A stretch of 54,705 nt of DNA from a virus (lineage: Duplodnaviria; Caudoviricetes), in the IMG/VR virus record IMGVR_UViG_3300037842_001004, positions 1 to 54,705 of that record; one strand, given 5' to 3'. Under the pieces are notes generated by a model. It had not been told where the DNA came from. It worked only from the letters and a program-made list of their open reading frames with translations, and did no database searches. This document shows, piece after piece, positions 18,859 through 43,039 of the stretch. How positions within the stretch are numbered: the first letter of the stretch is position 1; each line of letters starts with the position of its first letter. Position numbers and translations under genes: made by a program.

Positions 18859-21800
18859 ATGAGCGACCCCGACTTGCACAAGAGCAACCCGGTCGGGGGC
18901 CACCCGGTCACCGCCGGACCCGTAGCGGGAGCTGGCGACCCCTGGGGCTCGGCTCCCGGTGACGCGCAACTCTTCCCCGCCCTAGCTCCGTTGCCTGACG
19001 CGTACCGCGAGCAGGGACGGAGCATTCTTGCGTCTGGGTCCAGTCTGGCGCTGCGGGCCTACCGCGCCCTACTGGAGCGTGCCGGCGTCGACCGCAGCCG
19101 GGCGAACGTGGCGGTCGAGCTGGCCGCGGGCTACCTCGCGACCCTGGAGGCTCCAACGCGCCTGCGGAAGTCGGCGCTGCGGGACGAGGTGTGGGAGGTC
19201 ATCCCGGGCCGCTTCGCGCGATCCCTCCGCCGCCTCATGTTCAAGGGCGCGGGGCACAAGTACATCCGCCGCGTGCGGCGCAATGGCCGCTGGGTCTACT
19301 ACTACAACGTGACCGGCGGCGCCGGCCTGGGCCACGTCGACGAGATGCACCAGGGCGCCCGCTTCAAGCTCGACCAGGGTGGCAAGTCCGGGCACTACGA
19401 GGTCCTCGCGACGGAGGGCGGGTGGGTCACCATCCGGCACGACGAGAGCGGGCACGAGACCAAGATCCGCAAGACGGCGTTGCAGACGATGCTGCACCGG
19501 GAACACGCCGAGCTTCTGGAGGGTCACCGTGCCCGCACGAGGGCCGAGCTGGAGGCCGTGGGTACGCACGGGTCCACCAAGCAGCGAGAGCGCCTGGAGG
19601 CGTACTCCCGGCGCTACATGCACACCGCCGACCTGATGGATGACCCCGAGCTACGGTTGATGGTCTGGCCGAAGCCGGTGCTCGCGGATTCGCGGACCAC
19701 CTACGGCGCGCGCCTCCGGCCGGTCGGGTCAGCGACGGTGCCTCCGGGCTATACGGCCATCGACTCGCATGGCGATTTCAAGCACGGGACGGTGACCTAC
19801 GAGGCGCCGATCGAGGACCCGAAGCACTACGGCCTCGTCGAGATACCGAGCGCCCGCAGGCGCCTACAAGTCCTGGCCGCGGCCGTTGCCGACCTGAAGG
19901 AGTACGCCGCCGAGCACGTCGAGGAGGCGGCCGACGACCCGGGCTACTTCGAGCAGGTGGTCGGCCACTACATCGACAAGGCCGGCGTCCACATGGACCG
20001 GGCCGAGTTGGCGGCCGACGTCGAGGCGGCCCTGCGGGGCCTTCGCCCGGTCGTCCCCTACGCCGAGATGGCGAAGCCCTGGGAGACCGACGCCGACATC
20101 CTCGCGGAGCACGACATCCACACCTTCGCCGAGGTCGCCGCGGCCGGCGCCGAGAAGGTCGGCCAGCTCCTCGGAGACCCCGCGCGTGGGAAGCGGATCC
20201 ACGGCGACGCGACGATGCGCCTGGGTAGCAAAGACGCGCGGGCAATGGTCCTCGCAGACCACCCGAGCACGCACCCGGACTGGGTCCCTGACCTGTCGAA
20301 GGTCGACTTCTTCATCCTCAACTCCAGCGGCGGCAAAGACAGCGTCGCGATGCTCGCCAGGGCGATCGAGGTCGCGGACCGCCAGGGGTTCCCGCGCGAT
20401 CGGATGGTGGTGGTTCACGCCGACCTGGGGCGCGTCGAGTGGAGCGGCACGAAGGAACTCGCGGCGCAGCAGGCGGCCATGTACGGCGTGCGCTTCGAGG
20501 TGGTCCGGCGGGAGGGGCAAGACCTCCTGCAGCACATCGAGAACCGCTACTACCAACTCGCGGCCCGCATCGAGGACACGGAGGCCCTGTCGGCGCCCCC
20601 CGCCGCGGTGAGTCGCGTGACTCGTGTTGCGGGCCTTCCGCTCGCAGAGGTGGCTACCGCCGACCTTGTGCCCTTGGGCGGAAGGGGGGCGCGGCTGGTT
20701 GAGGCAGCGGCCGGGCGGATGCCGCCGGGAACCCGCCTGCGGACAGCCAACGATCACGAGCTGGTTTTCGAGGACGAGTCCGGCCGCCGTACGACGCTTA
20801 CCCGCATGAGGAATACGCCCACATGGACGGGGGAGGTGACGCGCGCGGTCCATTCCGAGCGCCTCGTGTCGGGGGATCCCTCGATCTCGGGCACTGAGAA
20901 CAGGCGACGGCAGAACAAACGGCGGGAGGTCACGACGGAGCACAAGACGGTTGCTTTCCTGCAGACCGCGCTGAGGGGCAAGCGTTCGGGGTCGCTGACC
21001 GATATGCTCGCGGCGGCCGTCTCTGCCGTCTCTGCCCAGGTGGTCGCCGCGCCTACCCCGCTCACTTGGGGGGACCTCTTCGCGCGCCTGCCCGAGCCGA
21101 AGAAGTCCGGCCGCAAGGCCGAGGTCGCCCGGTTCAAGGCTGAATGGGCGGCCGCCGTCGCGGAGATCGCCGCGAAGTTGCCCGAGCGGAACGTGACCTA
21201 CCCGCCCGGCTTCGAGGACAACCCGAAGCTCCGTCAGACGATGTCGCGCCAGATGCGGGCGGAGCAGATCCTCGCGAGCGCGCGCCGCAAGCAAGGCCAG
21301 AAGGAGCCCGGCGACCCGGTCGACTGGGGCATGCCGAACCCGTGGCCCGGCGACAAGCGGTACTGCACGAGCGAGCACAAGCGCGCGGTGATCGGCGTCC
21401 TGGTGACAAAGGCCGCGGAGAAGATGCACGGCCTTCCAGCTTGGCGCGCCGAGCGCGACGCGACGCGAGCGAAGCGCAAGGCCATCGCGAACGACCGCAT
21501 CAAGGTCGTCGCCAAGGCGAAGGGCCTGAAGGGCGCGCCTCGCGCGGCGGAGAAGGCTCGCATCACGGCGCAGCTCGCCGTGTCCATGCCCGACCCGCCC
21601 GAGCCGCCGGCGCCGCGGATCCTCAACATCATGGGCCTGCGCGCTCAGGAGTCCGAGGAGCGGGCAAAGAAGCCCGCGTTCTACGAAAACAAGGCGTCGT
21701 CGGGGGTGAAGCAGATCGACGACTGGCTCCCGGTCCAGGGATGGAGCGAGGAACAGGTCTGGGACCGCATCGCCCAGGAGGGCATGCCGAGCCACGACGC

Positions 21801-22509: not shown

Positions 22510-25500
22510 CCAGGGGACGGCGCGCCCGCGCACGGCAACGACACCTTCGAGAGGCCGAGTGGGTCAAGATCCCGGGCTCGATAGGGTCCGACCTCTTCGA
22601 CCGCCTGGAGAAGGGCGGCGCCCACAAGTACGTGCGACGCGTCCGCCGCGGCCGGCGCTGGGTCTACTACTACGACGTCACGGGCGGCCACGGCATCGGG
22701 CACCACGAAGAGATGCACGCCGGGGCCAAGTTCCGGCTCAAGAGCCGGGGCCACGCGGGCCACTACGAGGTGCTCGAAGTCAACGGTGACGAGGTCGTCA
22801 TCGAGCACGACGAGAGCGGCCACAAGGTCCGCATGAGTAAGGCCGCGCTGGAGAAGATGTTGCTGCGCGAGCACGCGAAGCTCGTCGACTCGCACAAGGC
22901 GCGCACCAGGGCGGAGATGGCCGAGGTCGCGAGGTTCGGGTCCAAGCGCCAGAAGCGCGCGATGCGCGAGTACGTTCGGCGCTACGGGCACACGAGGCCC
23001 CTGCAGACCAACCTTCACGAGCAATACGGGGAGCAGGGCGCGCCGAAGAAGGGCGAGAAGGGGCACGCCGAGCTGAGCCCCGAGAGGCGCGACGCCCTCG
23101 TCCAGGCGGACGCCATCCTCGACCGCGCCCGGCAGGTTTGGGAGGACCCCGACCAGGGTTGGCATGTGGCCTACGCCGCACAGGTCGCACTCGGCGTAGC
23201 CGTGACCGAGGACTGGTTGTCGGAGGACAGCCTTGGGGGCGAAGCCGAACTCGACCCCGAGGACCTCCCGCACCTGCTCGGAGCGAGCCACCTGTCCCCG
23301 CAGGACGCCGCCGAAGCGATCGTGCTCGCGGTCGACGTCAACGAGCGCGTCCCGCGCCCCCTCATGCGGGAGATGCTCGCGGACACGATCGCGCCGGTCG
23401 GCAAGATGCGGCTCGTGAACGTCCCGAAGGCCGAGGCGTTGGAGTTCGTCCAGCAACATCACTCCGAGATGCCCGAGCCGAACCCCCGCGGCCTCATCTA
23501 CGCGATCGGGATCCGCGACGGAGAGCGCCTCGTAGCGGTCGCCACGGCGAGCCACCCGAGCGGGCGATGGGGCTCCGGGCGGACGGACATCCGCAATATC
23601 GTCGAGTTGACGCGGATCGCCTCCGACGGCACCGGCCGCAAGGGCGCAAGCTCGAAGCTCGCAGCGCGGGTGATCGACTTGCTCGACAAGAGCAAGCGGG
23701 GCAACCCGGACGAGCCCGGCCTGTTCGTCACCTACTCGCTCCTGAGCGAGGCTGGCACCACGTACAAGGCGCTGCGCGAGAAGGGTCTGAGGCCCGTCTC
23801 GCTTCGAGAGGGAAAAGAGGGCGGCGGCGGCGGCGCCCGCAAGGGGAACAAACTGGGCTACGCCGCGCCCGACAAAATCCGATGGGAGGCCGGCGACGCG
23901 GCCGGGCCGGCTGACTGGAGCCTGCTCGACCTCGCTGTCGGAGGTGACAAGCACGCCGAGGCGATGGCCGAGCAGGCCAAGCGCGAAGCCGAGCGCCTGG
24001 GGAAGGACCGCGCCGCCGCGAAGGCCGACCTCGCCGCGGCGCTCGCCACGGAAGGGCGGGAGGGAGCCGACGCGACGATGGCGGCAGCGGCTCGCGTCCG
24101 CGCGACCGGCGGGAGCCCCGAGAGCCTGCCAGGGTGGGAGCGGTTCGCCACGCACAGCCCCTGGGGACCCCGTGAGCCCGTCGTCGAGGCGGGCCGGCGT
24201 TACGGCACGGTGCGAGCCGCCGGCGTCGGCGCCGGGCACTCCTGGTACGTCTGGGACGCCAAAGAGAAGAAGGTCGTCGACCACGCGCCCGGGTCCGCCC
24301 ACGCCGCCGACGCCGCCGAGGCCCGAGCCAGCGCCGCGAAGTGGAACGACGCCGCCGGGCGTGGCGCGACCCCGCACGAAGAGGACGCCGCGGAGATGGG
24401 CGCGAAGTGGCGGGCGAAGGCCGTCGGCCTGGAGGACGGGCAGGGTCCCGGGCAACTGGGGAATTGGATCCGGTCGATGCGCGACAACGTGCGCATGCAG
24501 CCGGGCGTCGACATCAGCCAGCACGAGCACACCCGCAGCCGTGCCGCCCTGGCGGCGCTCATCACCGAGCGCACCCGCCGGAAGGACCAGCGATCCATCG
24601 CGAGGCGCGCCGCCCTGGCGAAGAAGCGCGAGAGGTCGCGCGCAGCGCACAACGCGGCCCGACCGCAGGAGGACAAGACCAGGAAGGCCGCAGAGTACGC
24701 CGAGCGGGCCGCGAAGGTCCGGCAGCAACCGCGGGCGCACGACCCCGGCTTTTCGCACTCCCGGTACTTCGCGTCCGGCTCGAACCGGCCCGGGGAGATC
24801 CGGGGGCTCGCAGACGCGGGGCACAACATCGGCGTCGCGATCGACAAGCTCAACGAGGCCGCGGTCGTCGAGATTCAGGGGCTCAAGGGCGAGCAGGTGA
24901 AGGTGTTCGTCGACTCCGGCGCGTTCAGCGAGGTGTTCGTCAACTTCCCGGGGAAGTCCGGCAAGTTGCCCGACCCGGACCGCCCGGTCGGGATCCACAC
25001 CGTCGCGCCGATTTCGGACGAGGTCTGGGCCGAGCGCATCGAGAAGATGGGGCGCCTGACGACGCTCACATGGGACAGGGGGGAGGGGCAGCTCTACCTC
25101 GTCGCGCCCGACAAGGTCGGCGACCAGGACGAGACCCTCCGGCGCCTGGAGAAGTTCGCCGACGATGTCCGTGGGTGGGAGGCCGCGAGCGCAACGGTGC
25201 TCGTGCCCGTCCAGAAGGGCTCGCGGCGGATGGCGGATATGTGGAAGCGGCAGATGGAGATTCTCGGGCCGGGGGATTGGGTCGCCGCGATCCCGATGAA
25301 GAAGGACGCGACGAGCGCCGAGGACCTCCGCGTCTTCCTCACCTCCGCCGACCCGAAGCCGACCCGGCTCCACCTCCTCGGCCTGGGTCTGAACAGCGAC
25401 GCCTATCCGGCGGTCAAGGCCGTACTCGACGAGGTCGGCCCGGAGATTGAGGTCAGCCTGGACAGCAACCGCAAGCGCGCGATCGTCGGGCACTACCAGC

Positions 25501-27725: not shown

Positions 27726-30700
27726 GCTCGATCGAGCCGAGCGCGCGGACGGGCAGGGTCCGTGCGAGACCGGGGCGATAAGGCGCGCGAGCGGCTTCTC
27801 AAGTCCGGCGAGCGAGCCGGTCACAAGTACCTGTACCGGGTCAAACACGGCCGCGGCTGGCGCTACGTCTACAAGGATGATGTGGCGCACCACGCCCGAC
27901 CCATCTCGGACCGCGAGCGTTGGCGCCGCGACAGGTCACCGAAGGCGGACCAGGAGACGGCGCACAGGGTCGCGGCGCACGGTATTGTGCCGCACGCCGG
28001 CGTGCTGCGAGACGACGAGGTCCACGGCGCGTCGAGGGTCCTGGGCGGACACCGGGTCGACGAGAGCCGACTCAACTCAGCCGGTGTGCCGATCAAGGTC
28101 CCGAACCACAATCCGCACGACGAGTGGAACCGACATCGAGAGATTCTCGCCGCCCGGATCGGCGTTGTGGGCGACAGCATCGCCCACAACGAGAGTCGGC
28201 TCTCGACCTGGACGAACGGCACGGGCGAGGGCGTCACCTCCGCGGCCGAGCTGGTCGAGTTGGCGGGTGCGGCTGAGAGCGGGTTCAAGGACGTGATGCA
28301 CGCCGCCTGCGGCGCCGTCGCCGGTGCGACGACCTTCTACGGCGAGAAGAAGGACAAGGACGGGAAGGTCACGGGCGACTACGCCATCAAGGGCGCGAAG
28401 CGTCTAGGCGAGAAGGTCGAGGCGTGGGCGAAGGACGACGTCGAGCAGGGCCGGATGAGCAACATCGAGGGCGCACGCCTCCGTGTGCTCCGCAACGAAG
28501 TCAGCGACTGCTTGCGCGGCTCGATCCTCGTCGACCACCCGGAGCAGATCGGCCACGCCGTCGCGGCGCTTCGCGAGCACGCGAGGGCCGTTGGAGCTGA
28601 CATTACGGTCGAGAACAAGTGGGGCAACGAACACAAGGGCGCCTATCTGGCGGTGCATGCCCGGATGCTCATGCCGTCCCCAAAGGGGATGATCCGAACC
28701 GAGGTGCAGATCCACCCGAAGGCGCTCATCGAGCCCAAGGAGGAGATGCACAAGGTCTACGACGTGACGCGCAAGCCGGGCTTCGACAAGGCGAAGGACA
28801 AGGACGCCTACAACGCGAGCAGCAAACTCGTTTGGACGGCCGGCATGCGTCGACTGAACGAGGACCGCGGGCACGGGCAACTGACGGACCAAACGTCGCC
28901 GCATGCCTCACCCGAGGTTCACGAAGAGGCCGCACGGGCGCACGAGGGCGTAGCCAGGATGCACGAGGTCCGTGGCGCCCAGGCGGTCGGGGTGGCACGG
29001 GGTGGCGAGAAGGCAACGGACAGGCACGCGCGCTTCGCGAACGCCGCCCGATCGATGGCCCGAGCGCACCGCGTCCAAGCCTCCGCGAAGCGCGGTATCC
29101 GTCCGTTGGACGTCGGGGAGACTCACCAGCACCTCAGTTCGGACGAGCACGACAAACTCGCAGGGCTTCACGAGATGTCGGCCGTCGAGGACGAGCACGG
29201 TGCCTGGGGCATGAAGCACGGCGTGGACCGCGAGGTGGCCCTGAACCGCGCCGCTGTGTCCCGCCTCACAGCCGTCGGCCATCAGCAGGCAGCCCGGAAT
29301 GTTCGCATTGCCGCGATGGCCCGGCCGCTCCTGAAGGCCGAGGACCTTGAGAAGGGTCGGATGCGCGGGGGTAAGTACCTCAAGAAGCGTTGGACCGGCT
29401 CCCGTTGGGCCTACACCTACCCGGACGACGTCCACCCGGGGAAGCAGCGTCGCGCCATCATGGAGGACTTGGAGCACCACGTCCGACACGGCCACCTGCA
29501 CTCCGAGACGATCGCCGACCACGGGACCCGCCTCGGGGAGCTGGACAAGAAGGTCCGCGTCCGAGCGGCCGTCCGAGCTGGCGCCGATGCGTCCGAACTG
29601 GCTGCGATGAGTTGGGACGACCGCGAGGCGGCGATCGCCGCGAAGGTCGGTGAGCGCCCCTGGCGACGGAGCGCGGGGAAGGGGAAGACCGGGCGCGTGG
29701 GGTCGCAGGACCCGATGACCGGCACCTCGCTCGGGCAGTCCAGGGCGAACAAGGCACGGGCGAAGGCGGCCCACGTCGGCTCTGTCGGCGCTCAGGCCAA
29801 CCCACCGCGGCTGCACCCGGCCGCGACGGCATCGCGTGCGCAACAACTCGCGACGCACTCGGCCGCGGTCCACATCGAGACGCACCGGAACCCGCCCGAG
29901 GGCGGCGACCGGTACTCGGCCGTGCGGACCAAGTTGCACCAGGAGGCCATCAGCGCCCACACCGAGGGGAAAACGAAGGGGCACGACCGGCCGCACGCGA
30001 TCGTGATGATGGGCGGGCCAGGGTCCGGCAAGGGGACCGTCCTCAAGAAGATCATGGGGAAGGGTGCGATGGACAACTACGTCCACGTCGACCCCGACGA
30101 GATGAAGCAGCGCGTGCCCGAGTACCAGATCGCGCGTGCCCGGAACGCCAAGGACGCGGCGTCGGTGGGTCACGAAGAGTCGTCGCACATGGCGGTGAAG
30201 CTCCACCAGCACGCCGTCGCAGCTCGACACAACATCCTGCTCGACGGCACCGGGAAGAACGCGAAGAAGCACATCGCGAAGATCAAGGCCCTGAAGGCGG
30301 CCGGCTACCACGTCACCGTCATCAGCCCGCACATCGGGGTCGAGGAGGGCGTGGCGCGCGTCTCCCAACGTGCGGACCGGTCTGGTCGCTTCGTCCCGAC
30401 CGACGTCGTGCGCGGGGCGTACGGCAAGATCCCGGGCAACTTCCACGACGTGGCCGCGCACGCCGACGACGCGATGTTGATCGACAACCACAACGGCCCG
30501 CGCGTCATGTGGCACAAAGACGAAGACGGCGAGCACGTCAGCCACGCCGACCACTACTCCCGCTTCCGCGAGGACGCGGCGGAGTCGAGGAAGGGGCAGG
30601 GGAAGGACGCACGCGAGGCGACGGCCGCGGCGTCGGCCGCGTCTGCCGACTCCGACCAGGGCCACCTGCAGGCCCACCTTCGTCACCGTCGCCTGTCGAG

Positions 30701-31869: not shown

Positions 31870-34800
31870 GTGAACCCCGACCGAGCCAACCGAGCCCGCT
31901 TGCGCAAGTCGTTGGCGGGCATCGGTGCATCAGCAGCGCACGTCGCAAACGTGGCGAGGCTTCGCCAGCATCCGATGGGTCCGCCGCCAGGGCGCAACCG
32001 CAAGCGTTGGCCCTACCAGGGCACCGTCGACTTCCAAGGTCTGTCCGTTCGGGTCGAGAACGCCGCCGGCGACTTCCGCCGCGGTGTGTCGGACGACGGG
32101 ACGCCGTGGAAGACCAAGATGCGGGTCCACTACGGCGAGTTCGTCGGGACCCGCGGGACGGACGGCGACCCGGTCGACTGTTTCATCGGGCCACGCCGCT
32201 ACGCCCCGTTCGCCTACGTCGTCCACGCCCGAGACCGCCGCACCGACACCTACGACGAGTGCAAGGTGATGCTCGGGTTCTCGACCAGGGCCGAGGCCCT
32301 GGCGATGTACCGCGCGCACTACGACGGGACCGGCTGGGTCGACGGCGTCCGCAAGCTCGCGGTCGGCGAGCTGCGCGCGTGGCTCAGGGACCCCCGCAAC
32401 CGCGGCCGCAAGATCGGCGGCGGCCAAGAGCTGCGCAAGGCGATCCCGTTGCCGGCCGACCTCGGCCGGGCGCTCTGGGATGCCCAGGAGGGCGACCTCA
32501 CCAAAGGCAAGGCGCACAAGTACATCCGACGCGTCCGCAGGAACGGCCGGTGGGTCTACTTCTACAAGGTCACCGGCGGAGCTGGGCTCGGCCACCACGA
32601 CGAAATGCACGTCGGCGCCAAGTTCCGAATGCCGCTGACCTACTCGTCCAACCCAGAGAACCCGGTCGCGGGGCACTGGGAGGTCATCGGCGAGACCAAG
32701 GACGGGAAGATCCGGGTTCGTCACGACGAGTCCGGGGCCGAGCGGACGACGACCCGCGAGCAATTCTCGGAGGCCCTACGCGAGCATCACCGGGAGAGCA
32801 TCCGCGACGTCGGCCAGCGCGCGCACGAGGAGCACGTCGCAGCGTCGCTATACGGCTCGACGCGCCAACGAGAGCGCGCCGCGGAGCGCGTCCGCGAGCG
32901 GTTCCGGCAGTTCCCAGAGATGCAGCGGCTGCTATTCATCGCGCCGCCGGCGAAAGAGCCGAAGTGGCGCCCAAAGGGCCACCGGGAGCACGAGCACCTG
33001 AAGGCCGCCTTCCGCCTCTGCGAGAAGTACATCGACAACCCCCGCGGCCAGCTCGGACCCGCCGACACCGAAGCATGGAAGCCCGACGACAACGCCCGCC
33101 GGGCCGCGCGGCTGGCGCTCAAGGCCCTGGAGTTCTACGGGCACGACTTCGCGACCGCGACGCGCCTCTCGAAGCGAGCCGAGGCCCTGGGTATCGGTTC
33201 GTCGAAAGCCTTCGTCGAGCGGCTCCAGGCCATCGCCGCGGGCGACCCCAGCCTCAACCGGACGGGGCGCTACTACGACGTCAGCGCCTACGCCATGCGC
33301 GCCCTCTTCGCGTTCGAGCACGCCAAGGGTGAGCTGGCGATCGACCGCAAAGAGGACCTGAAGGGGAACGTCGCTCTCTACCTCGACACGCTCAGGCACG
33401 AGGCCCGGCGCAACTACATCAAGGGCCACGGGAACCGCGGGGGCATGGAGGCCCTGCGCGACATCCTCGGCCAGATCCGCACGAAGCGCGGGGTCAAGGC
33501 GTTCGAGGACATCCTGGCTTTCACGTCCAGCGCCAAGAGCGGTCCTGGACGTCGCGTGCGCCTCGCCCACGACGTCCTCGACCACGCCATCGCGACCGCA
33601 CAGGGGCGTCTGAAGTCGGCCGACAGGGAGATGGAGCGCCTGGGGCGCAGCGACCTGACCTCGACGTCGGGCCGCGCGACGCCGACCCTGGACGCCGCCA
33701 TCGAGAGCGACATCCAGGCCGTGCGCATCGCGAGCGGCTCGCTCACCGGCGCTCACCAGGAGTTCGGCCACGTCCTCGTGAGCGCCGACCGTCGCGTCCA
33801 CACCGAGAACTGGGAGTCGCGCGTACCTGACCACCGATTCTCCCAACTCCACCCGTCGAACTCGATGGTCCAACGCGCGTTCCGCGAGCGGTTCGGCGCC
33901 TCCGTCCACATCGAGGACGCCGTCTTCGACACGTTCAACTCACCACCGAGAGGACCGACGCCCAAATCCATGGAGAAGCGGTTCAAGTCCCTGGAGAAGG
34001 CGGCGTGGGGCATCCACGGCATGGGCGAGGGCGCGGCCGAGTGGGCGACCAACGCCGACAAGGCCGCCGCGGCAGAGGTGCGGATGGCGTCGGAGATGTC
34101 CACCGAGATGCGGGCCGACGCGCTGCGCAGCGTCTGGACGGCCCTGGAGGATATGGAGAAGTCGACCGGGCCTATCGACCTCTCCGGCCTACCCATTGTC
34201 ATCAGCGACCGCTTCGTGGGCACCGGGGCCGCGGCGCACTACAACGGGACGCACACGGCCGCCGAGTTGGGTGCCGACAAGCTCGTCAACGTCGACGTCG
34301 AGCCGAAGAACCGCGACTACCACAACGAGAACGCCGTCCGCGTGAAGCCGCACATCGCGCTCGGACTCAGGGCGGACAAGTCCCTCGGGCACGAGTTGGC
34401 GCACTACATCGAGAACCGGCTCACCATCCGCCCTGGCGGGCAAGATGCCGTTCACGACGCGCTGGCAAGCGCGGGGTTCGAGTGGGCGCACGCGAACGAC
34501 CCGTTCTTCTTCGAGCCAGAGAACCGGGAGTCCTGGGCGAAGGAGAAGCACGACCCGGGGATGCCGAAGGCGATCCTTGGGATGCTCCGTCGCGCGAAGC
34601 ACGTCGGAGGGCTCGTGTCGGAGGCTCAAGACGCCGGGTTCGCGGGCGGCGGGAAGTACCTGTCGACAATCGTCGCTCGCATCCTTCACTGGCGGGCGAA
34701 GGCCGACAAGCCAGCGTACCACGGCGACGGTAGCGCCGAGATAGCGAGCCTCGCAGACGGGATGCTCGCCAAGCTGCGCAAGCTCCCCGGCGGCCGCGAG

Positions 34801-35184
34801 GTCATCGATCTGCAGGAGGCCATCCAGAGCACCGGTGCCTACCAGCGGTTCGAGGAGATGGACAAAGAAGACAACCGAGGAAACCGGGGCATCATCGACG
34901 AGCTGTTCGGCCGCAAAGACGCGGCGTCGAGGCGCTACTGGGAGTCGGGGACGGAGATGACGGCGCGCGCCGTCGAGCAGTACCTCTACGAGGCCGGCGC
35001 GGCGCGAGGCGAGGTCAACACGACCCTGACGCACCCGCACTACAGCGGCGAGCCCGTGTTAGAGAGGTCGTCGGCCTACTTCGATCCGCACGAGTTCAAC
35101 AAGAAGATCGCCCCAAAGGTCAAGGCGCTCCTGGCGTCGATGGGCGAGCACATGACAAAGGCGTTGCTAGGGGGTGAGCGTTGA
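31870..35184 (+). CDS. giant cargo protein 4: inorganic pyrophosphatase-like + shared leader + HExxH/LPD1-like domain
   Basis: VRVENAAG...HYG...GTDGDPVDCFIG...YDECKVMLGF (polyvalent-protein InPase pattern). LTKGKAHKYIRR leader (~32503-32890). LGHELAHYIE at ~34384. RYWESGTEMTARAVEQYL (LPD1 pattern). Confidence 0.85.
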   Translation: MNPDRANRARLRKSLAGIGASAAHVANVARLRQHPMGPPPGRNRKRWPYQGTVDFQGLSVRVENAAGDFRRGVSDDGTPWKTKMRVHYGEFVGTRGTDGDPVDCFIGPRRYAPFAYVVHARDRRTDTYDECKVMLGFSTRAEALAMYRAHYDGTGWVDGVRKLAVGELRAWLRDPRNRGRKIGGGQELRKAIPLPADLGRALWDAQEGDLTKGKAHKYIRRVRRNGRWVYFYKVTGGAGLGHHDEMHVGAKFRMPLTYSSNPENPVAGHWEVIGETKDGKIRVRHDESGAERTTTREQFSEALREHHRESIRDVGQRAHEEHVAASLYGSTRQRERAAERVRERFRQFPEMQRLLFIAPPAKEPKWRPKGHREHEHLKAAFRLCEKYIDNPRGQLGPADTEAWKPDDNARRAARLALKALEFYGHDFATATRLSKRAEALGIGSSKAFVERLQAIAAGDPSLNRTGRYYDVSAYAMRALFAFEHAKGELAIDRKEDLKGNVALYLDTLRHEARRNYIKGHGNRGGMEALRDILGQIRTKRGVKAFEDILAFTSSAKSGPGRRVRLAHDVLDHAIATAQGRLKSADREMERLGRSDLTSTSGRATPTLDAAIESDIQAVRIASGSLTGAHQEFGHVLVSADRRVHTENWESRVPDHRFSQLHPSNSMVQRAFRERFGASVHIEDAVFDTFNSPPRGPTPKSMEKRFKSLEKAAWGIHGMGEGAAEWATNADKAAAAEVRMASEMSTEMRADALRSVWTALEDMEKSTGPIDLSGLPIVISDRFVGTGAAAHYNGTHTAAELGADKLVNVDVEPKNRDYHNENAVRVKPHIALGLRADKSLGHELAHYIENRLTIRPGGQDAVHDALASAGFEWAHANDPFFFEPENRESWAKEKHDPGMPKAILGMLRRAKHVGGLVSEAQDAGFAGGGKYLSTIVARILHWRAKADKPAYHGDGSAEIASLADGMLAKLRKLPGGREVIDLQEAIQSTGAYQRFEEMDKEDNRGNRGIIDELFGRKDAASRRYWESGTEMTARAVEQYLYEAGAARGEVNTTLTHPHYSGEPVLERSSAYFDPHEFNKKIAPKVKALLASMGEHMTKALLGGER

Positions 35185-36926
35185 GCGTCTTTACCGACAT
35201 GTTCGAGCTGGCGGGAGACGCCATCGAGGGCGCCGCCGACGGCCTCGTGAAGGCCCGGCGCGCCCGGCGCGGCCTCACGGAGACAGAGACAGCGGTCACC
35301 CAGGAGCGCGGCAAGGGCCGCGCGGGCATCGTCACCGACCCCGACTTCGAACTGAAGAACCGCGGCGGGTACGGCAAGGGTGACTTCGCAGAGCGCCCGA
35401 GCGGCCAGACCTGGGACACACTACGCCGCGTCGCTGCAGCCCCCCCGGTGGTCGCGCTCCACAACGTCCAGAAAGACGGCATCGCGGAGTTCTGCAACCC
35501 GCAGGACAACCCGCGGCTTCCGGGGTTCGGCGTCCGCATGCGGGACAAGGGCGCCCGCTACACGCCGTCGAAGGCTGAGGCGAAGGAACTCCACCGGTCG
35601 TCGCGCTTCATGCAGCATTGCGGCCACCTGAACGACATCGGGGAGCTGACGACGAGGACCGACTTCGAGGGGCTCGTCCGGCATTGCATGCCCGACTCCC
35701 TCCGCTTCGACCAATTCTGCATGCAGGTTGAACCGAAGCTCGGTTGGCAACCCGGCGCGATGACTCAGAAGTTCGTACCGCACCGCCTGCACTGGATCCC
35801 GGGCCACACGATCCGCCTCGCGATGCCGCCGACCGACGGCACCCCGTTGAAGGGCTCCGACCTCAAGACCCACCGGTACGTCCAGGTCGACCGCCACGAC
35901 GAGGTGCTCGCCAAGTTCGCGCCGCAGCAACTCATGTTCGGCGTGCTCAACCCGCACCCCGACATCGAGAACGCCGGCTACGGTTGGTCCGACCTGGAGA
36001 AGCTCACGGACGTGTTGACGGCGTGGCTCTACGGCTACGCGTACAACCGGAACTACTTCAAGCAGGGCGCCAACGTGAAGGGCATCTTGCACTTCGACGA
36101 GGAGCCGCCGCGCGGCCAACAACGCCGGTTCGAGCGGTACTTTCACGCGCTCATCACTGGGGTGGGCAACGCGCACAAGGTGCCGATCGCCTGGGGCGGC
36201 AAAGCGAGCTGGTTGAGCCTGGGCCAGAACAACCGCGATATGGAGTTCAACGAGTGGATGAACTTCCTCACGAAGCTCCTATGCGCGATCGCCGGCGTTG
36301 ATCCGGCTGAGATTCACTTCGTGTTCGGCAACACGGGCCAGTCAAGCGCGATGGGGAGCGCCAGCGTCGACGAGAAGATCACCCAGAGCCGCGCGCGCTG
36401 GCTCCGCCCGAGGGTCCGCGCGCTGTTCAAGTGGCTGAACCACTACGTGATCTGGCCCATGAACCCGGACGTCGAAATCTTCGCGACCGGGATCGACATG
36501 GAGAGCGCCGACGCGGAGCACAAGCGGTACATGGACCTCGCTGAGAAGACGCATTACATCGACGAGGTCCGCGCCATGATGGGCGACGGGCCGCTCGAAG
36601 CCGTGCCCGAGGATATGCAGAAGAACCCCGGCAAGGTGATCCTCAACCAGACGTGGCAGCAGGCGACGCAGAGCATGGACGGCATGGAAGAGGGCGGCGG
36701 CGGCGAGGAGGGCGGCGAGGAAGGCGGGGGGGGCGAGGGCGCACCCGAGGACGGCGACGACAAGGCCGCCGAGGACCGTCTGATGGGCGGCGTTGACGAC
36801 GAGGGGGGTGACAGCGGCGGCGGTGGTGGGGATGATGGTGGTGAGCAGGCCGAGGGCCTGTACGATGCGAGCATGATCAAGTCCGGCTCGGCTCGTGATA
36901 GAGTCCGAGCCACTTTGGAACTCTGA
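35181..36926 (+). CDS. portal protein
   Basis: DSLRFDQ...TIR...YVQV...YGWSDLE...YNRNYFKQGANVKGIL...DMEFNEW...GVDPAEI...IDEVRAMMG. Confidence 0.9.
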   Translation: MSVFTDMFELAGDAIEGAADGLVKARRARRGLTETETAVTQERGKGRAGIVTDPDFELKNRGGYGKGDFAERPSGQTWDTLRRVAAAPPVVALHNVQKDGIAEFCNPQDNPRLPGFGVRMRDKGARYTPSKAEAKELHRSSRFMQHCGHLNDIGELTTRTDFEGLVRHCMPDSLRFDQFCMQVEPKLGWQPGAMTQKFVPHRLHWIPGHTIRLAMPPTDGTPLKGSDLKTHRYVQVDRHDEVLAKFAPQQLMFGVLNPHPDIENAGYGWSDLEKLTDVLTAWLYGYAYNRNYFKQGANVKGILHFDEEPPRGQQRRFERYFHALITGVGNAHKVPIAWGGKASWLSLGQNNRDMEFNEWMNFLTKLLCAIAGVDPAEIHFVFGNTGQSSAMGSASVDEKITQSRARWLRPRVRALFKWLNHYVIWPMNPDVEIFATGIDMESADAEHKRYMDLAEKTHYIDEVRAMMGDGPLEAVPEDMQKNPGKVILNQTWQQATQSMDGMEEGGGGEEGGEEGGGGEGAPEDGDDKAAEDRLMGGVDDEGGDSGGGGGDDGGEQAEGLYDASMIKSGSARDRVRATLEL

Positions 36927-37395: not shown

Positions 37396-37416
37396 ACCCT
37401 CTCGGAGGAGGCCCCC

Positions 37417-37824
37417 GTGGCGCTCACCGCATCGTTTGCCGTCGACTTCGCTGTGTTCGCGCAGCAGTACGGCACGGCCACGACTGCGGCCGCCGAACGC
37501 GGCGCCACGGTGGCGCGCCTGTTGAAGCAGACCGTCAGCGTCCTGACCCGTTCGTCGTCTCACCCTCAGCTCGAAGTCGCCGCGGGTGAGACGGTCCAGG
37601 TGAACCTCGGGAGCATGGGCTCACCGAAGTTCATCTTGGTCGAGAGCGACCTCGTCATCAATCTGAGGACCAGCGCCGTCGACGGTGAAGCCTGGGCGCT
37701 GACGCCGCTCGGCACCGGGCTTCCGGCGATCGCGCTGTTGACAGTGCCTGTTGCCGGCGTCTGGCTGCACAACGCCGGCGCCGCGGCTGCAACGGTCAGC
37801 GTTCACGCGCTCGGCACGGAGTAG
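37417..37824 (+). CDS. virion structural protein (beta-rich)
   Basis: GGAGG RBS; hydrophobic beta pattern. Confidence 0.55.
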   Translation: MALTASFAVDFAVFAQQYGTATTAAAERGATVARLLKQTVSVLTRSSSHPQLEVAAGETVQVNLGSMGSPKFILVESDLVINLRTSAVDGEAWALTPLGTGLPAIALLTVPVAGVWLHNAGAAAATVSVHALGTE

Positions 37825-37829
37825 CCCCG

Positions 37830-39092
37830 GTGCGCGTCGATGTCGACGCTGAGCCGGGCGAACTGACAGCGAGGATCGGCGAGTGGGTCCCCGCCATCCT
37901 GGCGAAGGCGGACGCCGACCCGGAGTTCGTCAAGGCCGTCAGCGACGCCCTGGCACCCCACGGCGGGACGGGCGAGCCCTGGCCCTGGCCGCTGGGCCAC
38001 GAACTCGAACACGAGGTCACAGAGGCCGTCAGGCGCCGCTACGGGTTGCTACTCGACCGGCTCGCCGCGGAACCCATGTTCAAGCCCGAAGGCGACGCCC
38101 TGGTGAAGGCCGCCGCGAGGGCGTGGATCACCGCGGACCGGCTCCACCGTCTGCGCGACATCGTCTCATCGGAGCACGCGGCACTCGCGGTCGAGCTGTT
38201 CGGTCCCGGGGTCCTGAGCGCGAGCCAACTCGCCCAGCTCCGGCAGGCCGGGATCCTCACGGACGCCGACGTCGCGCGCGGCCGCCGCGACGGTCTGCGG
38301 ACCGGGCTCGGTGATGCACACTTGCTCGGCGCGGTCATCGCGGCCGACCCTGGCAGGGGGCGCACGCTCACCCTGGCTGAAGCGCGGTCCCGCGCACGCC
38401 GACTCGCCCCGACCACGATGCGCGACCGGCAAGCGGCCGTCGCTCGCCTTCGCGGCGGGCAACAGATCGTCGGCCTGGGGAACCGGGTGGCGGACGACCT
38501 CACGACGATCGCGATCGTCAACGACGACGAGCGCGCCCAGCGGTACCGGGCGAGGGTCTCGGAGGCGGTCGCGCAACAGGCGGAGGAGGGCTTCGACGCT
38601 GGCGAGCTTCGCCAACGTATCGCTCAGGCCCTGGAGGGCGACTACGCGCGCGACATCAACCGGATAGTCATCACGGAGACCCACGCGGCCATCCAGGGTG
38701 GCGTCGCGGCCGGCTTGCTCGACCGCTACGGTGACGAGGTCGACTGCGCGGTGGTGCCGGCCCCCGGTGCTTGTCCCGTCTGCCACAGGCTCTACACCGG
38801 CCCCGACGGGCCTATCGTCTGGCGCGCGGGCCTATTGCCCCCGTCGACGGTGAACTTCCAGCGCAAGGCGGCCGCCCGGGTCGCCTGCATTCCGCCGGCG
38901 CACCCCCATTGCCGTTGCGAGCTTGTCTACGTTCCGGCCGGGTGGAGGGTCAGTGAGGAGGGGCAGGTGTTGCCCCCGCTGAAGAAGTCCGAGGTCCCCG
39001 ACGTGGACGTCGACCCCGTGGTCGACGATCATGGGGACCAACACGCGCACCCGTTCACCTGGGGCCGTCACTTCGGAGATGACAGATGTTGA
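37830..39092 (+). CDS. head morphogenesis (MuF / SPP1 gp7-like) protein
   Basis: RIVITE...ACPVC..LY...PPAHPHCRC. Confidence 0.85.
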   Translation: MRVDVDAEPGELTARIGEWVPAILAKADADPEFVKAVSDALAPHGGTGEPWPWPLGHELEHEVTEAVRRRYGLLLDRLAAEPMFKPEGDALVKAAARAWITADRLHRLRDIVSSEHAALAVELFGPGVLSASQLAQLRQAGILTDADVARGRRDGLRTGLGDAHLLGAVIAADPGRGRTLTLAEARSRARRLAPTTMRDRQAAVARLRGGQQIVGLGNRVADDLTTIAIVNDDERAQRYRARVSEAVAQQAEEGFDAGELRQRIAQALEGDYARDINRIVITETHAAIQGGVAAGLLDRYGDEVDCAVVPAPGACPVCHRLYTGPDGPIVWRAGLLPPSTVNFQRKAAARVACIPPAHPHCRCELVYVPAGWRVSEEGQVLPPLKKSEVPDVDVDPVVDDHGDQHAHPFTWGRHFGDDRC

Positions 39093-42000
39093 GTTGGGGA
39101 ACCGCACTAGATGGTCGCCAGGGCGTGGTTTTCACGCTCCACACGAACGATATGGCGAAGGGCTTCGACGGCGGCCCGGTCCGCATGGTCGAGTTGCCGA
39201 CCCTGATCGGGGTGCTGCTTTCGAACAGTCTCGAACTGCGCCTGGAGAAGGGCGCCGGCCACAAGTACATGCGCAAGGTCTGGACGGGTAGCCGTTGGCG
39301 CTACTTCTACAGCGTCTCCGGCGGAGCTGGGCTCGGGCATCACGACGAGTTCCACGAGGGCGCGAAGTTCAAGCTCGCGCACGGCGGGAAGGCCGGTCAC
39401 TTCGAGGTCACCGGGAAGACCGACGACGGCAAGCTCAAGATCAAGCACGACGAGAGCGGGCACGAGGAGCACCTCCACCCCGACGCCCTGAAGGAGATGC
39501 TCCACCGGGAGCACGCCGACGCGCTCGACGGCCACACGAAGAAGATCGCCCAGGACCTGAAGGACGTTGCGAAGCACGGCTCCGACAAGCAGAAGGCCCG
39601 ACTGCAGGCGGAGGCCGGCAAGTACGGCCACACGGAGCACTTGACCGACGCTGGCAAGGCCAAGGCCAAGGCCGGCGCTGGCGCTGGCGGCGAGGCCGAG
39701 GGCGGCGGCAAGGGCGACAAAGACAAAGAGGCGGCCGCCCGGAAGAAGGAGCAAGTCGCCGCGGTCTGGGGCGACAAGTCCGGGCGTGATGCCGCCGACA
39801 GGGAGGCCAAGGCCGCGGCGAAGACGCGGAGCGGGAAGGGCATTCCCGCGCATACCAACGAGCACGGCGACCACGACAAGGACAAGGTGGGGGAGGCGAC
39901 GAAGGACTGGTCGGCCAGCGATCACGACGACGCCGCGGCCCACCACGACAAGGCCGCCCGAGAGTCCGACGAGAAGTCGGGGCTCGAAGGCGAGGACTAC
40001 GACAAGCACCAGAAGGACTACAACGCGCACCTCGACGCGGCCGGCCAACACGAGGACGCCGCCGAAGCGAAGCACGCCGACGCGCTCGAAGCCGACGATG
40101 CGTCGAAGGGGAAGGTCCGCGAGGTCGCCAAGGTGATGAACGAGGGCGCGGCCCGCATCCAGGGGATCGCCGCCAAGGGGTTCGACCGGGAGCGAGAGGT
40201 TGGCGACCACGCCGTCTACCGCTCGAAGGACGGTGCAATCAGTTTCACGGCGAAGAAGGACGCGAGCCCGAGCGACGTCGCACACGCGTTCGTTGACGAG
40301 ATGGTCCGTCGGCAGTTGGAAACGACGGCCGGCGATCACAAGATGACCGACGGCGAGCAGAAGACGGCCCGCGCCGTCCTGCGCCGCACGCTCGACGTCT
40401 CGAAGATCGTCGGGGCGCTCGGCCCGATCGGGCACGCCAAGCCCGAAGCCAAGCCTAAATCCCCCCTGGCGGCCAAGGCCGCGGCCGAGGACGCGCACGC
40501 CACGAAGGAGAGCGCGCGCCATGAGGCGAAGGCGAAGGAGCACCAGACAGCCGCCGACGACCTCGACCGGGGCGTCGAGTCGCGCGGGATCCATCAGGTG
40601 GCAGCGACGCAGCACCGAGGGGCCGCCGCCGCGCACGAGAGACTGAGCGACTCGGCCGATTCGCGGTCACGTATCGCAGACGGTCACAGCGAGCAGGCCG
40701 GCGCCCACGACGCGAAGGCCGACGAGAAGAAGGAGCGCGAGACCGGGCCGGGCCGGGGCAAAAAGGGGACGTTCGGGGACGAGAAGAAGCCCGGGAAGGG
40801 GATGTCCGCGGACGAGTTCGCTGACAATGTCTCGGACATCGGAACCAGTAGCGCGGAGCGCGCCGCGAAGGCGAAGGGCCGGGCGGCCGGCAAGGCGGAC
40901 GCCAAGGTTGCAGTCGCGGCCGCAAAGCAGAAGTCCGGTGACGAGTCGACCGCGGCCGTCGCAACGGACAAAACCGAGTTCGGCCAGGGGAAGCGCGAGG
41001 ACAATGCGACCCGCGAGGCGGCCTCGAACCACCACGGCCAGGAGGGCAACAAGCACCTCAAAGCTGCGAAGGCGGCAGACGCGGCCGGGGATCACGACCT
41101 CCGCGATGCGCACGTCGCAGCGGGCAAGGCGCACGTCCTGGCGCGCAAGAGCGGCGGGTACCACCGGGCGATGGCCGACGCGGCGACGAAGGCAATCTCG
41201 GATGCCCAGGCCCGCGCGCTGAAGCCGGACGCCGACGAGAAGAAGGAGCGGGAGACCGGCCCAGGCAAGGGCAAGAAGGGCACGTTCGGGGACGACGACG
41301 CCGGCCAGAGCCCCGCGCACGCCAAGTGGGAGGCCCAATACCGGAAGTACAAGGAAGGCTCCGGCAGCTACCCGAAGAGTCGCGGCCGGGCCGGCGTCGA
41401 CAAGGCCGCGATGGACGCGATCACGGCGAAGGTGGACGCCGAGCACGACGAGACTCGACGCCAGGAGTCGACCGGCAAGGCCGAGGGCCACAACGCCGAG
41501 GTCGAGCGGCACGAGAAGGCGGCGAGCTTCCACAGGGATGCCGCAAAGAAGGAACTCGGATTCAACGCCGCCACCGCCCACAAGGACGCGGAGGGGGCTC
41601 ACGACACGGCAGCGCATCACCACCGCGGCGCCAGCGAAAGCTGGAAGGCGCACGCGATGGGTCAGCCCGGTCGAGGCGCCCCGGCCAGGAGCACGACGGC
41701 GGCGACGGAGAGCGCGCGGGCCGACAAGGCGAGCGAGAGGAGCCGGCGACTGGCGAAGCCCGAGCCCGAGCCAAAGGCGGCAGCTCCTGCAGCGAAGCCC
41801 GAGGCCGCACCCGGCGAGATGCCAACAAGCGTCGGGGATATGAAGGCCGAGCACATCGCCCAGCTCCGCGGGACCGGAGATTGGACCAAGGGCGGCGTCA
41901 ACCGGACGAACAAAGACGGCTCAAACAGCGACACCCAGGGCGAGGTCGGCCACGGCATGAACGTCTTCAAGGAACAGGGGGCTTTTTTGATCGGCCATGA

Positions 42001-43039
42001 GGCAAGCGGCCTCGTCATCGGGAAGAACTTCCGCAGCGCGGCCGAGGCGAAGACCGCCGCGATGATGTTGCACCACGCCGCGGGCGAGGGCGGCATTCAC
42101 GACGACGCGAGGAGGGCCGCGGAACAGCTCGGCCCCCACGCGGCCGCGCTCGGGGCTCACCAGAAGGACGGAACGCTCGAAGAGGGCATGCGGCAGGCCC
42201 GCGAGGCGAAGAAGACCGCTAACTCCAATGCGGCCGCGAAGAAGGGCCTGGACAAGATCGCCAGCCTCGGGAGCCACCAACCCGAGAAGGTCACGCACTC
42301 CACAAGCGACGAGGCCCACGCGAAGGCCAAGGGCTCGAAGCGGGCCTCGTCGTTCGCTGCGTCCCCGTCGGAGTATCGCCCAGGCATGAGCCAGTATCTG
42401 GTGAAGGACGGCCGGGCGGTCTCGACCGACGGCAAGCGCGCGGCGAGTATCCCCGTCGCGGGCCACGACGACGGCCACTACGCGAGCCACAACCCGTCCG
42501 CACTGTACGACCGCCACGGCGGCGCGAAGCAGGGCGAGCGGTCCGACATCACGAAGGACGGGGACAAGTCGTTCTTTCACGACCCGCTCACCAGCGCCGT
42601 TCACGATTTCGTCGATCCGGCCACCTACCCGCACAAGGCGAGCCTTGACGCGTCGCAACTGAGGACAGCCCTGGACGGATCGAAGTTCCTCGCCAAAGGC
42701 GCGGAACACCGCGTGTCCCTGGAGAGCAAAGACGGCGCGATGACGATGCACGTCACAGGCAACGCCGACCACCCGACGCACGCGGGCCAGAAGGTCAGCG
42801 TGCCCCTGGGTGAGCACGAGGGACCCGACTTCGCGATGGACGTCCAACACAAGTTCCTGAGCGACGCCATGAAGGGCGCGAAGGGGACCGTGCAGCTCGG
42901 ACTGAAGGCGGGCCGCAAGGGCGGGCGCAAGTCCACGACCGACACGAAGCAGGGCAAGGGGAAGCAACCCGACACGGGGATCCTGCACGTCGCGCGGTCC
43001 GACGGTGAGAACCACGCCATCGCGTCGTTCAGGGACTGA
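39086..43039 (+). CDS. giant cargo protein 5: shared leader + His/Ala repeats + DNA polymerase III beta-clamp-like C-terminus
   Basis: LEKGAGHKYMRK leader (~39248-39640). VKDGRAVSTDGKRA...YP...MDVQHKFLSDAMK...HAIASFR (~42394-43036). True start may be the ATG at 39152. Confidence 0.75.
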   Translation: MLSWGTALDGRQGVVFTLHTNDMAKGFDGGPVRMVELPTLIGVLLSNSLELRLEKGAGHKYMRKVWTGSRWRYFYSVSGGAGLGHHDEFHEGAKFKLAHGGKAGHFEVTGKTDDGKLKIKHDESGHEEHLHPDALKEMLHREHADALDGHTKKIAQDLKDVAKHGSDKQKARLQAEAGKYGHTEHLTDAGKAKAKAGAGAGGEAEGGGKGDKDKEAAARKKEQVAAVWGDKSGRDAADREAKAAAKTRSGKGIPAHTNEHGDHDKDKVGEATKDWSASDHDDAAAHHDKAARESDEKSGLEGEDYDKHQKDYNAHLDAAGQHEDAAEAKHADALEADDASKGKVREVAKVMNEGAARIQGIAAKGFDREREVGDHAVYRSKDGAISFTAKKDASPSDVAHAFVDEMVRRQLETTAGDHKMTDGEQKTARAVLRRTLDVSKIVGALGPIGHAKPEAKPKSPLAAKAAAEDAHATKESARHEAKAKEHQTAADDLDRGVESRGIHQVAATQHRGAAAAHERLSDSADSRSRIADGHSEQAGAHDAKADEKKERETGPGRGKKGTFGDEKKPGKGMSADEFADNVSDIGTSSAERAAKAKGRAAGKADAKVAVAAAKQKSGDESTAAVATDKTEFGQGKREDNATREAASNHHGQEGNKHLKAAKAADAAGDHDLRDAHVAAGKAHVLARKSGGYHRAMADAATKAISDAQARALKPDADEKKERETGPGKGKKGTFGDDDAGQSPAHAKWEAQYRKYKEGSGSYPKSRGRAGVDKAAMDAITAKVDAEHDETRRQESTGKAEGHNAEVERHEKAASFHRDAAKKELGFNAATAHKDAEGAHDTAAHHHRGASESWKAHAMGQPGRGAPARSTTAATESARADKASERSRRLAKPEPEPKAAAPAAKPEAAPGEMPTSVGDMKAEHIAQLRGTGDWTKGGVNRTNKDGSNSDTQGEVGHGMNVFKEQGAFLIGHEASGLVIGKNFRSAAEAKTAAMMLHHAAGEGGIHDDARRAAEQLGPHAAALGAHQKDGTLEEGMRQAREAKKTANSNAAAKKGLDKIASLGSHQPEKVTHSTSDEAHAKAKGSKRASSFAASPSEYRPGMSQYLVKDGRAVSTDGKRAASIPVAGHDDGHYASHNPSALYDRHGGAKQGERSDITKDGDKSFFHDPLTSAVHDFVDPATYPHKASLDASQLRTALDGSKFLAKGAEHRVSLESKDGAMTMHVTGNADHPTHAGQKVSVPLGEHEGPDFAMDVQHKFLSDAMKGAKGTVQLGLKAGRKGGRKSTTDTKQGKGKQPDTGILHVARSDGENHAIASFRD

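Follow-up and report, generated by a model that had tools for sequence, protein, structure and literature searches.

Phages encode polyvalent proteins among their late or virion genes, in many cases as MuF fusions, and the prediction is that these proteins enter the head and are injected (Iyer et al. 2017, PMC5512222). Fusions of MuF to toxins are encoded within the packaging module, as described by Jamet et al. (2017, PMC5576092). In the Dar system of phage P1, anti-restriction cargo (DarB, Ulx, DdrA/B) is loaded by way of the carriers DarA and Hdf, which touch both capsid and DNA (PMC12810830; PMC5512222). How modules that are fused neither to MuF nor to portal reach the capsid is not explained in the accessible part of PMC5512222. 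Here we describe a protein domain of about 150 amino acids (aa) that recurs in the giant head-module proteins of an uncultured tailed phage, represented by the viral contig IMGVR_UViG_3300037842_001004 (54,705 bases, about 69% G+C, completeness rated 40%; the whole contig was analysed and is called the window). By its position, its repetition and its gene context, this domain is a concrete candidate for the missing capsid-loading link.

The five giant proteins of the window (P0001 to P0005) resemble polyvalent proteins in their size, in joining disparate enzyme domains, in being encoded among late or virion genes and in their link to MuF, which in relatives extends to fusion. At least two disparate domains are combined in P0004 (InPase, an LPD1-like region and HExxH), P0001 and P0003 carry a named cargo together with the domain or its core, and the giant genes are flanked by those for the large terminase (TerL), portal, protease and capsid, with MuF-like fusions in relatives. 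In contrast to the described polyvalent proteins, the shared domain matched no Pfam model, including the LPD models held there, and none like it is mentioned in the accessible part of PMC5512222. MuF proteins and MuF-toxin fusions also combine a head protein with variable C-terminal effectors, and here a MuF-like gene overlaps a domain-bearing gene; unlike in those fusions, the cargo of the window is carried on separate genes that start with the new domain and is not fused to MuF. With the P1 Dar system the locus would share dedicated carrier domains for head-loaded anti-restriction proteins, if the loading role that we propose is correct, whereas no sequence relation was found: DarA_N gave no match at E<=0.01 in the five proteins, and no fold in the PDB matched at E<=1e-3. 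In phage T4, the internal proteins and Alt are directed into the prohead by a capsid-targeting sequence, a removable peptide only some 10 residues long. Both T4 and the window have an N-terminal element on unrelated proteins and a prohead protease; the element considered here differs in being a 150-aa domain with a predicted fold that also occurs internally and in multiple copies.

One domain, approximately 150-160 aa in length, was common to P0001, P0002, P0004 and P0005, all of which are giant + strand open reading frames (ORFs). In pairwise BLASTP comparisons the four long copies were 37-53% identical over 144-216 aa, with expectation (E) values from 8e-28 to 1e-41 (5e-25 for the pair P0002/P0004). 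When a profile built from these four copies (A1) was searched against the record, it matched at exactly six places, four of them at 256-270 bits and two, both in P0003, only weakly (29310-29420, 17.2 bits, E 1.2e-4; 27798-27875, 16.1 bits, E 2.5e-4). The hairpin pattern KY..[RK]..[WYF].[YF].[YF], searched in all six frames, occurred at only six places (19258, 22626, 32518, 39263, 27825 and 29373); in 200 shuffles of the translations of the three + strand frames, the mean number of matches was 0.0. The HKY motif began at aa 172 of P0001, aa 40 of P0002, aa 216 of P0004, aa 59 of P0005, and aa 44 and aa 560 of P0003. Among the window proteins the domain was N-terminal only in P0002 and P0005; in P0001 it began at aa 148 counted from the GTG at 18742, or at about aa 109 counted from the ATG at 18859.

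An earlier note, made by a model from the letters of this DNA, had reported a domain of about 115 aa at four places and its short core at two more, giving coordinates that lie 12-24 nucleotides (nt) upstream of the hairpin pattern matches, near the start of the K-G motif. BLASTP, the profile and the pattern confirmed the four strong and two weak places at those positions. The length required correction, the profile having 164 positions and the AlphaFold model 159 aa. The conserved helix (E-[IL]-P-x-W-[LM]-G-x-x-L across the family) that had been placed upstream of the domain belongs to the domain itself. Both short cores were indeed present in P0003, but they comprised only the first part of the domain (the helix and the HKY..R..W.Y.Y beta-hairpin), present twice and lacking the barrel. 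Outside the domain the proteins had been called unrelated; other than the hairpin cores of P0003, no further high-scoring segment pair with E <0.9 was found.

AlphaFold modelling of the P0002 copy (159 aa, 50-row alignment) gave a mean predicted local distance difference test score (pLDDT) of 91.8 and a predicted template modelling score (pTM) of 0.79. The model contained a helix at 10-17, a beta-hairpin at 30-41 (HKYIRRV..RWVYYY), a five-stranded barrel region at 61-97, and three to four helices at 98-158. It thus predicts an autonomous folded unit of about 150 aa in which a helix at the N-terminus is followed by a beta-hairpin of basic and aromatic character (HKYIRRV..G..RYxY), then by an SH3/Tudor-like barrel, and last by a tail of helices. 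A Foldseek search of the PDB yielded no match at E<=1e-3; the best matches were barrels of the SH3/Tudor type (E 0.08-0.3), covering about 40 of the 159 residues with query-normalised template modelling (TM) scores of 0.2-0.28. The central 40 or so residues superposed on the myosin N-terminal SH3-like domain and on the SETDB1 and SMN Tudor domains with root-mean-square deviations of 1.6-2.8 A, whereas the hairpin, the N-terminal helix and the helical tail had no counterpart there. These weak barrel matches name the modelled core fold only loosely and are silent on function. In BFVD a single match reached E<=1e-3 (E 5.2e-6); it fell on an unannotated stretch of a "DdrB-like domain-containing protein" from an uncultured phage, which is most likely a member of the family.

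A profile search of 1.84 billion representative proteins detected 585 clusters at E<=1e-3, 418 at E<=1e-10 and 102 at E<=1e-30. We examined 199 family proteins holding about 245 copies, 193 of them from outside the window. In more than 90% of the copies K18, H22, K23, Y24, R27, R35, Y36, Y38, G55, G67, H68, H83, D84, E85, G87 and H105 were kept. The domain was biased toward the N-terminus: among 160 single-copy proteins from elsewhere it started within the first 30 aa in 97, at aa 31-100 in 19, at aa 101-300 in 26 and beyond aa 300 in 18, and it was C-terminal in none (0/160). Two to four copies per polypeptide were present in 33 of the 193 proteins, and as these copies were spaced 271-1816 residues apart, each heads a new module. 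Inspection of the linkers that precede 46 internal copies revealed no conserved motif, such as a cleavage site. The strict pattern [WF]..(H/Q)PR..G.[FW] was found in 0 of 201 family proteins. A GPRGGKW-type motif was observed in 11 of the 201, none of them among the five of the window. For 110 relatives, names and precomputed Pfam matches were on record; all but one, labelled 2'-5' RNA ligase, were unnamed or "hypothetical", and their cargo included InPase, LPD1, ddrB-ParB, C5 methylase, helicase sets, 2H phosphoesterase, DUF3560 and ferritin. Together with PAPS reductase, most of these are cargo typical of polyvalent proteins; variable cargo was what the earlier note had expected of relatives. 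Segments of the P0002 and P0004 cargo reappeared in other combinations across other family proteins. The domain marks the start of each effector module in polyvalent proteins of one uncultured tailed-phage lineage.

No described counterpart of the domain was found. Against Pfam at E<=10 the only matches were to DUF2244 (E 0.16) and DUF4213 (E 0.22), each with one of the four copies. No PHROG family fell on the domain, and for P0002 and P0005 there was none at all; NCBIfam contained no family for it, a sequence profile search of the PDB matched only low-complexity stretches outside it, and an ESM Atlas search returned no usable match. In genomes representing 185,579 species, one genome per species, a search with the A3 alignment gave three matches, all on contigs of metagenome-assembled genomes (MAGs) and two of them with head genes; the A1 pattern gave 349 pattern matches in the same genomes and no relative among them. 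We found no description of the domain in the literature, including the accessible part of PMC5512222, the comparison with LPD domains covering the LPD models in Pfam. Judged by these searches, which agree with the earlier note in that it was not recognised there as a described family (no match in Pfam, PHROGs, NCBIfam, the PDB, the ESM Atlas or GenBank phages, as against 585 clusters), the domain is a real, large and undescribed family, with the LPD comparison limited to the models that Pfam holds.

To place the domain in its genomic context we scanned viral contigs twice and added the matches of the genome scan, which gave 45 loci after pieces of the window had been set aside; 38 of them contained a full-length domain. 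At least one homologue of the head genes of the window lay within 10 kb of the domain in 33 of these 38 loci (portal in 26, MuF-like in 23, protease in 11, capsid in 9 and TerL in 6), which agrees with the confinement to head modules that the earlier note had proposed as a check. Five loci had no head gene in their flanks (L027, L031, L032, L033 and L036); L031 and L032 come from the same contigs as L029 and L030, lying next to these two loci, both of which bear a portal gene, and L027 is mostly filled by its giant gene. The slot between TerL and portal recurred in L004, L006, L034, L041 and L050, and the slot right after MuF in L001-L003, L008-L011, L029, L037 and L039; a place directly after portal was also seen. 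As the related loci range from 46 to 74% G+C, their hosts are probably diverse. On the contig shared by L031 and L029, six domain-bearing genes stood in a row around portal, and the same slot held a homologue of the N-terminal half of P0003.

We also built a quick maximum-likelihood tree of 49 copies, from which six near-duplicate loci and any copy of fewer than 130 residues were excluded. In this tree the window's three pre-portal copies clustered together with a Shimodaira-Hasegawa-like approximate likelihood ratio test (SH-aLRT) value of 92, and the P0005 copy grouped with the post-MuF copies of L001, L037 and L039 in a clade of nine (SH-aLRT 93). These groupings hint at duplication within the phage for the pre-portal slot and at positional orthology for the post-MuF slot. 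Specialisation of the copies by slot was considered as well and set aside, the tree being too weakly resolved (8 of 45 inner branches at >=95%).

The gene that precedes the fifth giant gene encodes P0006, which had been labelled MuF. It gave no direct match in Pfam, PHROGs or NCBIfam, and none to Phage_Mu_F at E<=1. Its homologues came closer to Phage_Mu_F (PF04233, cutoff 29.6 bits), with 26.0 bits for L003 (E 1.6e-5), 17.1 for L008 and 17.7 for L011; P0006 matched these homologues with phmmer E values from 5.5e-21 (L003) to 1.3e-19, and P0006 and the homologues have a common C..C...HP.CRC end. Because the homologues stay just below the Phage_Mu_F threshold, we call P0006 MuF-like and not a proven member. 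Six family proteins (P0058, P0039, P0137, P0164, P0087 and P0034) consist of a MuF-like N-terminus followed by the domain and then cargo, and therefore the adjacent pair of the window, a MuF-like gene and a domain-cargo gene, exists elsewhere as one polypeptide. In three of the six fusions InPase lies between the MuF-like part and the domain. In L002 it is the MuF-like protein that carries InPase, and the gene that follows starts with the domain; in the window, InPase precedes the domain within P0004. When P0006 and the P0005 domain, both supplied as alignments, were co-folded in runs without controls, scores of 0.30 and 0.07 were obtained, the mark being 0.32; these carry no weight on either side of the question of binding. 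Two MuF-like genes had features of their own. That of L002 (L002:7197-9371) encodes a C-terminal InPase (E 3.1e-33) and has a GPRGGKW-type motif in the linker; that of L007 (L007:18415-20286) gave sub-threshold matches to Intein_splicing (E 1.1e-6), Hint_2 (E 1e-5) and PT-HINT (E 2.4e-5), which suggests a head protein with an intein or Hint insertion.

Besides those in P0003, weak matches that covered only the hairpin were to small Lys-rich proteins of 132-155 aa from phages of low G+C content (29-38%), none with a PHROG match. These proteins (L013:9977-10375, L014:528-965 and L016:9890-10345) consist of an HKYI.R..GRW.Y.Y hairpin and a Lys-rich tail. Their gene order was TerL, hairpin protein, portal in L016; hairpin protein, portal in L014; and TerL, hairpin protein in L013. 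This weakly suggests that helix plus hairpin form a separable head-associated element. Upstream of the head module in L016 there is also a 1040-aa protein (L016:1704-4826) that matched phrog_4291, "RNA-dependent RNA polymerase", with E reported as 0.

We propose, at a little short of an even chance, that the domain is a reusable adaptor by which polyvalent effector modules would be bound, packaged into the virion and injected. This proposal is based on the positional bias, the confinement to head modules, the variable and reshuffled cargo and the MuF fusions, together with the precedents set by the T4 targeting sequence, by the Dar system of P1, and by the known polyvalent proteins and MuF fusions. 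The small hairpin-only proteins beside TerL or portal count in its favour as well, as does the finding of no more than three matches, all on MAG contigs, in the genomes of 185,579 species. The domain would dock each module onto an internal component of the head during prohead assembly, the likeliest partners being the MuF-like protein, the portal, or other copies of the domain. The attached enzymes (PAPS-reductase-like, zeta-kinase-like, pyrophosphatase, metallopeptidase-like and others) would thereby be encapsidated and would exit together with the DNA when a cell is infected. In modules encoded by separate genes, the domain stands at or near the N-terminus; in fused giants or MuF fusions it recurs at every module boundary. 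The prohead protease may or may not trim the packaged modules; as such a protease is encoded in the record, T4-like processing could take place within the head. A stronger form of the proposal, that the domain alone would suffice to load any fused protein into the capsids of the whole lineage by docking to the MuF-like protein, to portal or to itself, with helix plus hairpin as the minimal address, we regard as doubtful, though well worth entertaining.

Several observations weigh against an adaptor. The domain was absent from 50,697 GenBank phage records (tblastn, two queries), and thus from the cultured phages there. The loci represent one phage lineage, were found with narrow peptide patterns, give the context of a minority of the 585 clusters, and include near-duplicates (L008-L011, L029/30, L031/32, L038/40 and L043/44). 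In the five loci with both TerL and portal, three of the eight ORFs of at least 300 aa in the slot between them lacked the domain. A tag is needed once per polypeptide, yet 33 of the 193 family proteins from outside the window have two to four copies. P0004 and some ten relatives have the domain inside the protein, immediately behind InPase, and the six MuF fusions keep it behind a MuF-like part that should already place them in the head; the plain term "leader", which had been applied to it, is too narrow. The conserved K/H/Y/R/D/E set seems more typical of a ligand-, metal- or nucleic-acid-binding site, or of a catalytic site, than of a simple docking surface.

Because of the repeated copies, the presence behind MuF, the internal place in P0004 and the conserved H/D/E/K/R/Y set, other explanations were kept. 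The hairpin and barrel might bind nucleic acid, in which case the modules would be co-packaged with the phage DNA and positioned on it at entry; this would put anti-restriction and takeover enzymes where they act and is compatible with a role as adaptor. The conserved K18, K23, R26/R27 and R35 with Y24, Y36 and Y38 on the hairpin would suit such a tether, as would the Lys-rich tails of the small hairpin-only proteins, and one tether per module would account for the repeated copies. The weak fold matches (E 0.1-0.3) include a PWWP domain with single-stranded DNA, Sac7d, integrase C-terminal domains and KOW-type Spt5, and in P1 the DarA-Hdf pairs contact capsid and DNA (PMC12810830). There was, however, no significant structural or sequence match to DNA-binding families, and conserved His, Asp and Glu are atypical of DNA binders; we consider a DNA tether unlikely. 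The same His, Asp and Glu residues (H22, H68, H83, D84, E85 and H105, each more than 90% conserved) could instead serve self-cleavage, or the domain could be recognised by the prohead protease or a metallopeptidase as a cut mark of giant polyproteins that persists at the start of modules turned into separate genes. Its recurrence at module starts in proteins with two to four copies, the presence of a prohead protease gene, and the prediction that polyvalent proteins are cut by zincin-like peptidases (Iyer et al. 2017, PMC5512222) are in line with processing. It is nevertheless quite unlikely: the linkers before the 46 internal copies lack a conserved motif, no likeness to any peptidase fold or family was detected, and most members are single-module proteins in which the domain comes first and there is nothing to cut off.

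It is also conceivable that the domain acts after injection, as a targeting or regulatory module common to the effectors, all of which it would bring to one place by binding a single host component or a metal, with its position in the head module reflecting late expression only. Tudor/SH3-like barrels, to which the weak matches point, are common protein-binding modules, the conserved polar cluster fits a specific ligand, and retention of the domain even with MuF fused in front would be explained. Such a role, which we judge improbable, leaves unexplained the near-exclusive linkage to one portal/MuF lineage across loci of 46-74% G+C, and no host-like homologues were found, only the three MAG contigs. 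That the domain has no function of its own, being a stable spacer copied along with the modules by duplication or recombination, is highly improbable. The clustering of the three pre-portal copies in the tree fits duplication within the phage, but about 16 positions are kept at more than 90% across 245 copies from loci of such different G+C content, and there is the bias toward the N-terminus or module start, with no C-terminal case in 160; the conserved positions and the positional bias argue for selection on both the sequence and the position of the domain.

If the domain is a loading adaptor, packaged effectors would become predictable from sequence across many uncultured phages, and the domain would offer a handle for putting chosen proteins into capsids. 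If the stronger form of the proposal holds, phages would have a plug-and-play means of equipping a virion with more than one enzyme for injection. Should the domain bind DNA or a metal, or direct processing, it would even then define how these giant proteins are organised.

Table 1. Positions of the head-module genes, the giant genes and the copies of the shared domain in the window (HMM, hidden Markov model)
Feature	Position	Strand	Evidence or remark
Large terminase TerL	12990..15242	+	phrog_38, E 3.8e-61
Giant gene 1, P0001, 1255 aa	18742..22509	+	GTG start at 18742 (earlier note: ATG 18859); shared domain and PAPS-reductase cargo
Shared domain copy 1 (P0001 aa 148-305)	19183..19656	+	A1 HMM 256 bits; record search 262 bits
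Giant gene 2, P0002, 1595 aa	22506..27293	+	N-terminal shared domain
Shared domain copy 2 (P0002 aa 15-173)	22548..23024	+	252 bits; modelled copy
Giant gene 3, P0003, 1183 aa	27693..31244	+	zeta-toxin-like kinase cargo
Hairpin core a (P0003 aa 33-66)	27789..27890	+	deep HMM 21.7 bits, profile positions 21-51 only; A1 16.1 bits
Helix plus hairpin core b (P0003 aa 541-604)	29313..29504	+	deep HMM 14.9 bits; A1 17.2 bits; BLASTP E 7.6e-5 to P0005
Giant gene 4, P0004, 1104 aa	31870..35184	+	InPase, shared domain, HExxH region, LPD1-like end
Shared domain copy 3 (P0004 aa 187-355)	32428..32934	+	251 bits; internal, directly after InPase
Portal protein	35181..36926	+	phrog_2662, E 2.3e-22, plus four further portal PHROGs
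MuF-like minor head protein P0006, 420 aa	37830..39092	+	end overlaps P0005 start by 7 nt; homologues near Phage_Mu_F
Giant gene 5, P0005, 1317 aa	39086..43039	+	shared domain, long charged low-complexity middle, unnamed C-terminal domain
Shared domain copy 4 (P0005 aa 30-193)	39173..39664	+	263 bits; record search 269.5 bits
Head maturation (prohead) protease	49919..50743	+	phrog_1028, E 9.9e-22
Major capsid protein	51605..53119	+	phrog_752, E 1.7e-56

The genes of Table 1 lie on the + strand in the order TerL, four giant genes, portal, the MuF-like gene, the fifth giant gene, prohead protease and major capsid protein. A putative scaffold gene is located at 50753-51550, between the last two. 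The gene order given by the earlier note, with four giant genes between TerL and portal and the fifth after P0006, therefore stood, apart from the MuF label of P0006, for which no direct Pfam or PHROG match was obtained. The portal protein was 28-30% identical to SPO1-like portals, and a megablast search of GenBank phages with 31870-39092 gave no match. Two minus-strand ORFs (15274-15981 and 16400-16744) with coding-like G+C content at third codon positions lie between TerL and the giant genes and interrupt the otherwise one-directional module at 15274-16744.

The cargo assignments of the earlier note held in part. PAPS_reduct in P0001 (aa 963-1020, E 2.8e-8; also phrog_424, E 9.8e-19), Zeta_toxin in P0003 (aa 760-943, E 4.6e-32) and InPase in P0004 (aa 50-172, E 4.6e-34) passed the threshold, and the HExxH of P0004 can be read directly in the sequence as GHELAH. 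LPD1 in P0004 (aa 1018-1093) fell just below its cutoff, at 26.6 bits against 27 (0.4 bits short). GNAT (by way of Mom, E 0.027), DarA_C (E 0.27, in P0001) and the beta-clamp amounted to sub-threshold hints, and the segments named TGT, ART and RelA-SpoT gave nothing of the kind. The cargo of P0002 matched no family in Pfam, PHROGs or NCBIfam, and its search against PDB sequences gave two rows at chance level; for P0003, PDB sequence matches were limited to zeta/PezT and adenylate kinases. P0003 opens with the tandem peptide MDSMDSMDSMD (27693-27725), which leaves its true start codon uncertain.

P0005 matched no family in Pfam, PHROGs or NCBIfam and had no sequence relative in the PDB. Its C-terminal domain (aa 1040-1317; 42203-43036) had one local relative, L043/P0096 (E 1.7e-11), which likewise stands behind the shared domain; a homologue search in the near length range returned only P0005 itself. 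AlphaFold modelling of this C-terminal domain on the two-row alignment gave a pLDDT of 43.7, too poor for a fold search, and the beta-clamp idea thus rests on a sub-threshold hint of DNA_pol3_beta_3 (13 bits, E 0.091). Between the two domains, from about aa 194 to 1039 (39665-42200), P0005 has a long low-complexity stretch rich in Ala, Lys, Asp, Glu, His and Gly, which matched no family and is a candidate spacer or internal-head region. The segment DEKKERETGPG.GKKGTFGD, about 20 residues long, is present twice in this stretch, and at 40001-42000 the AT skew reaches 0.50.

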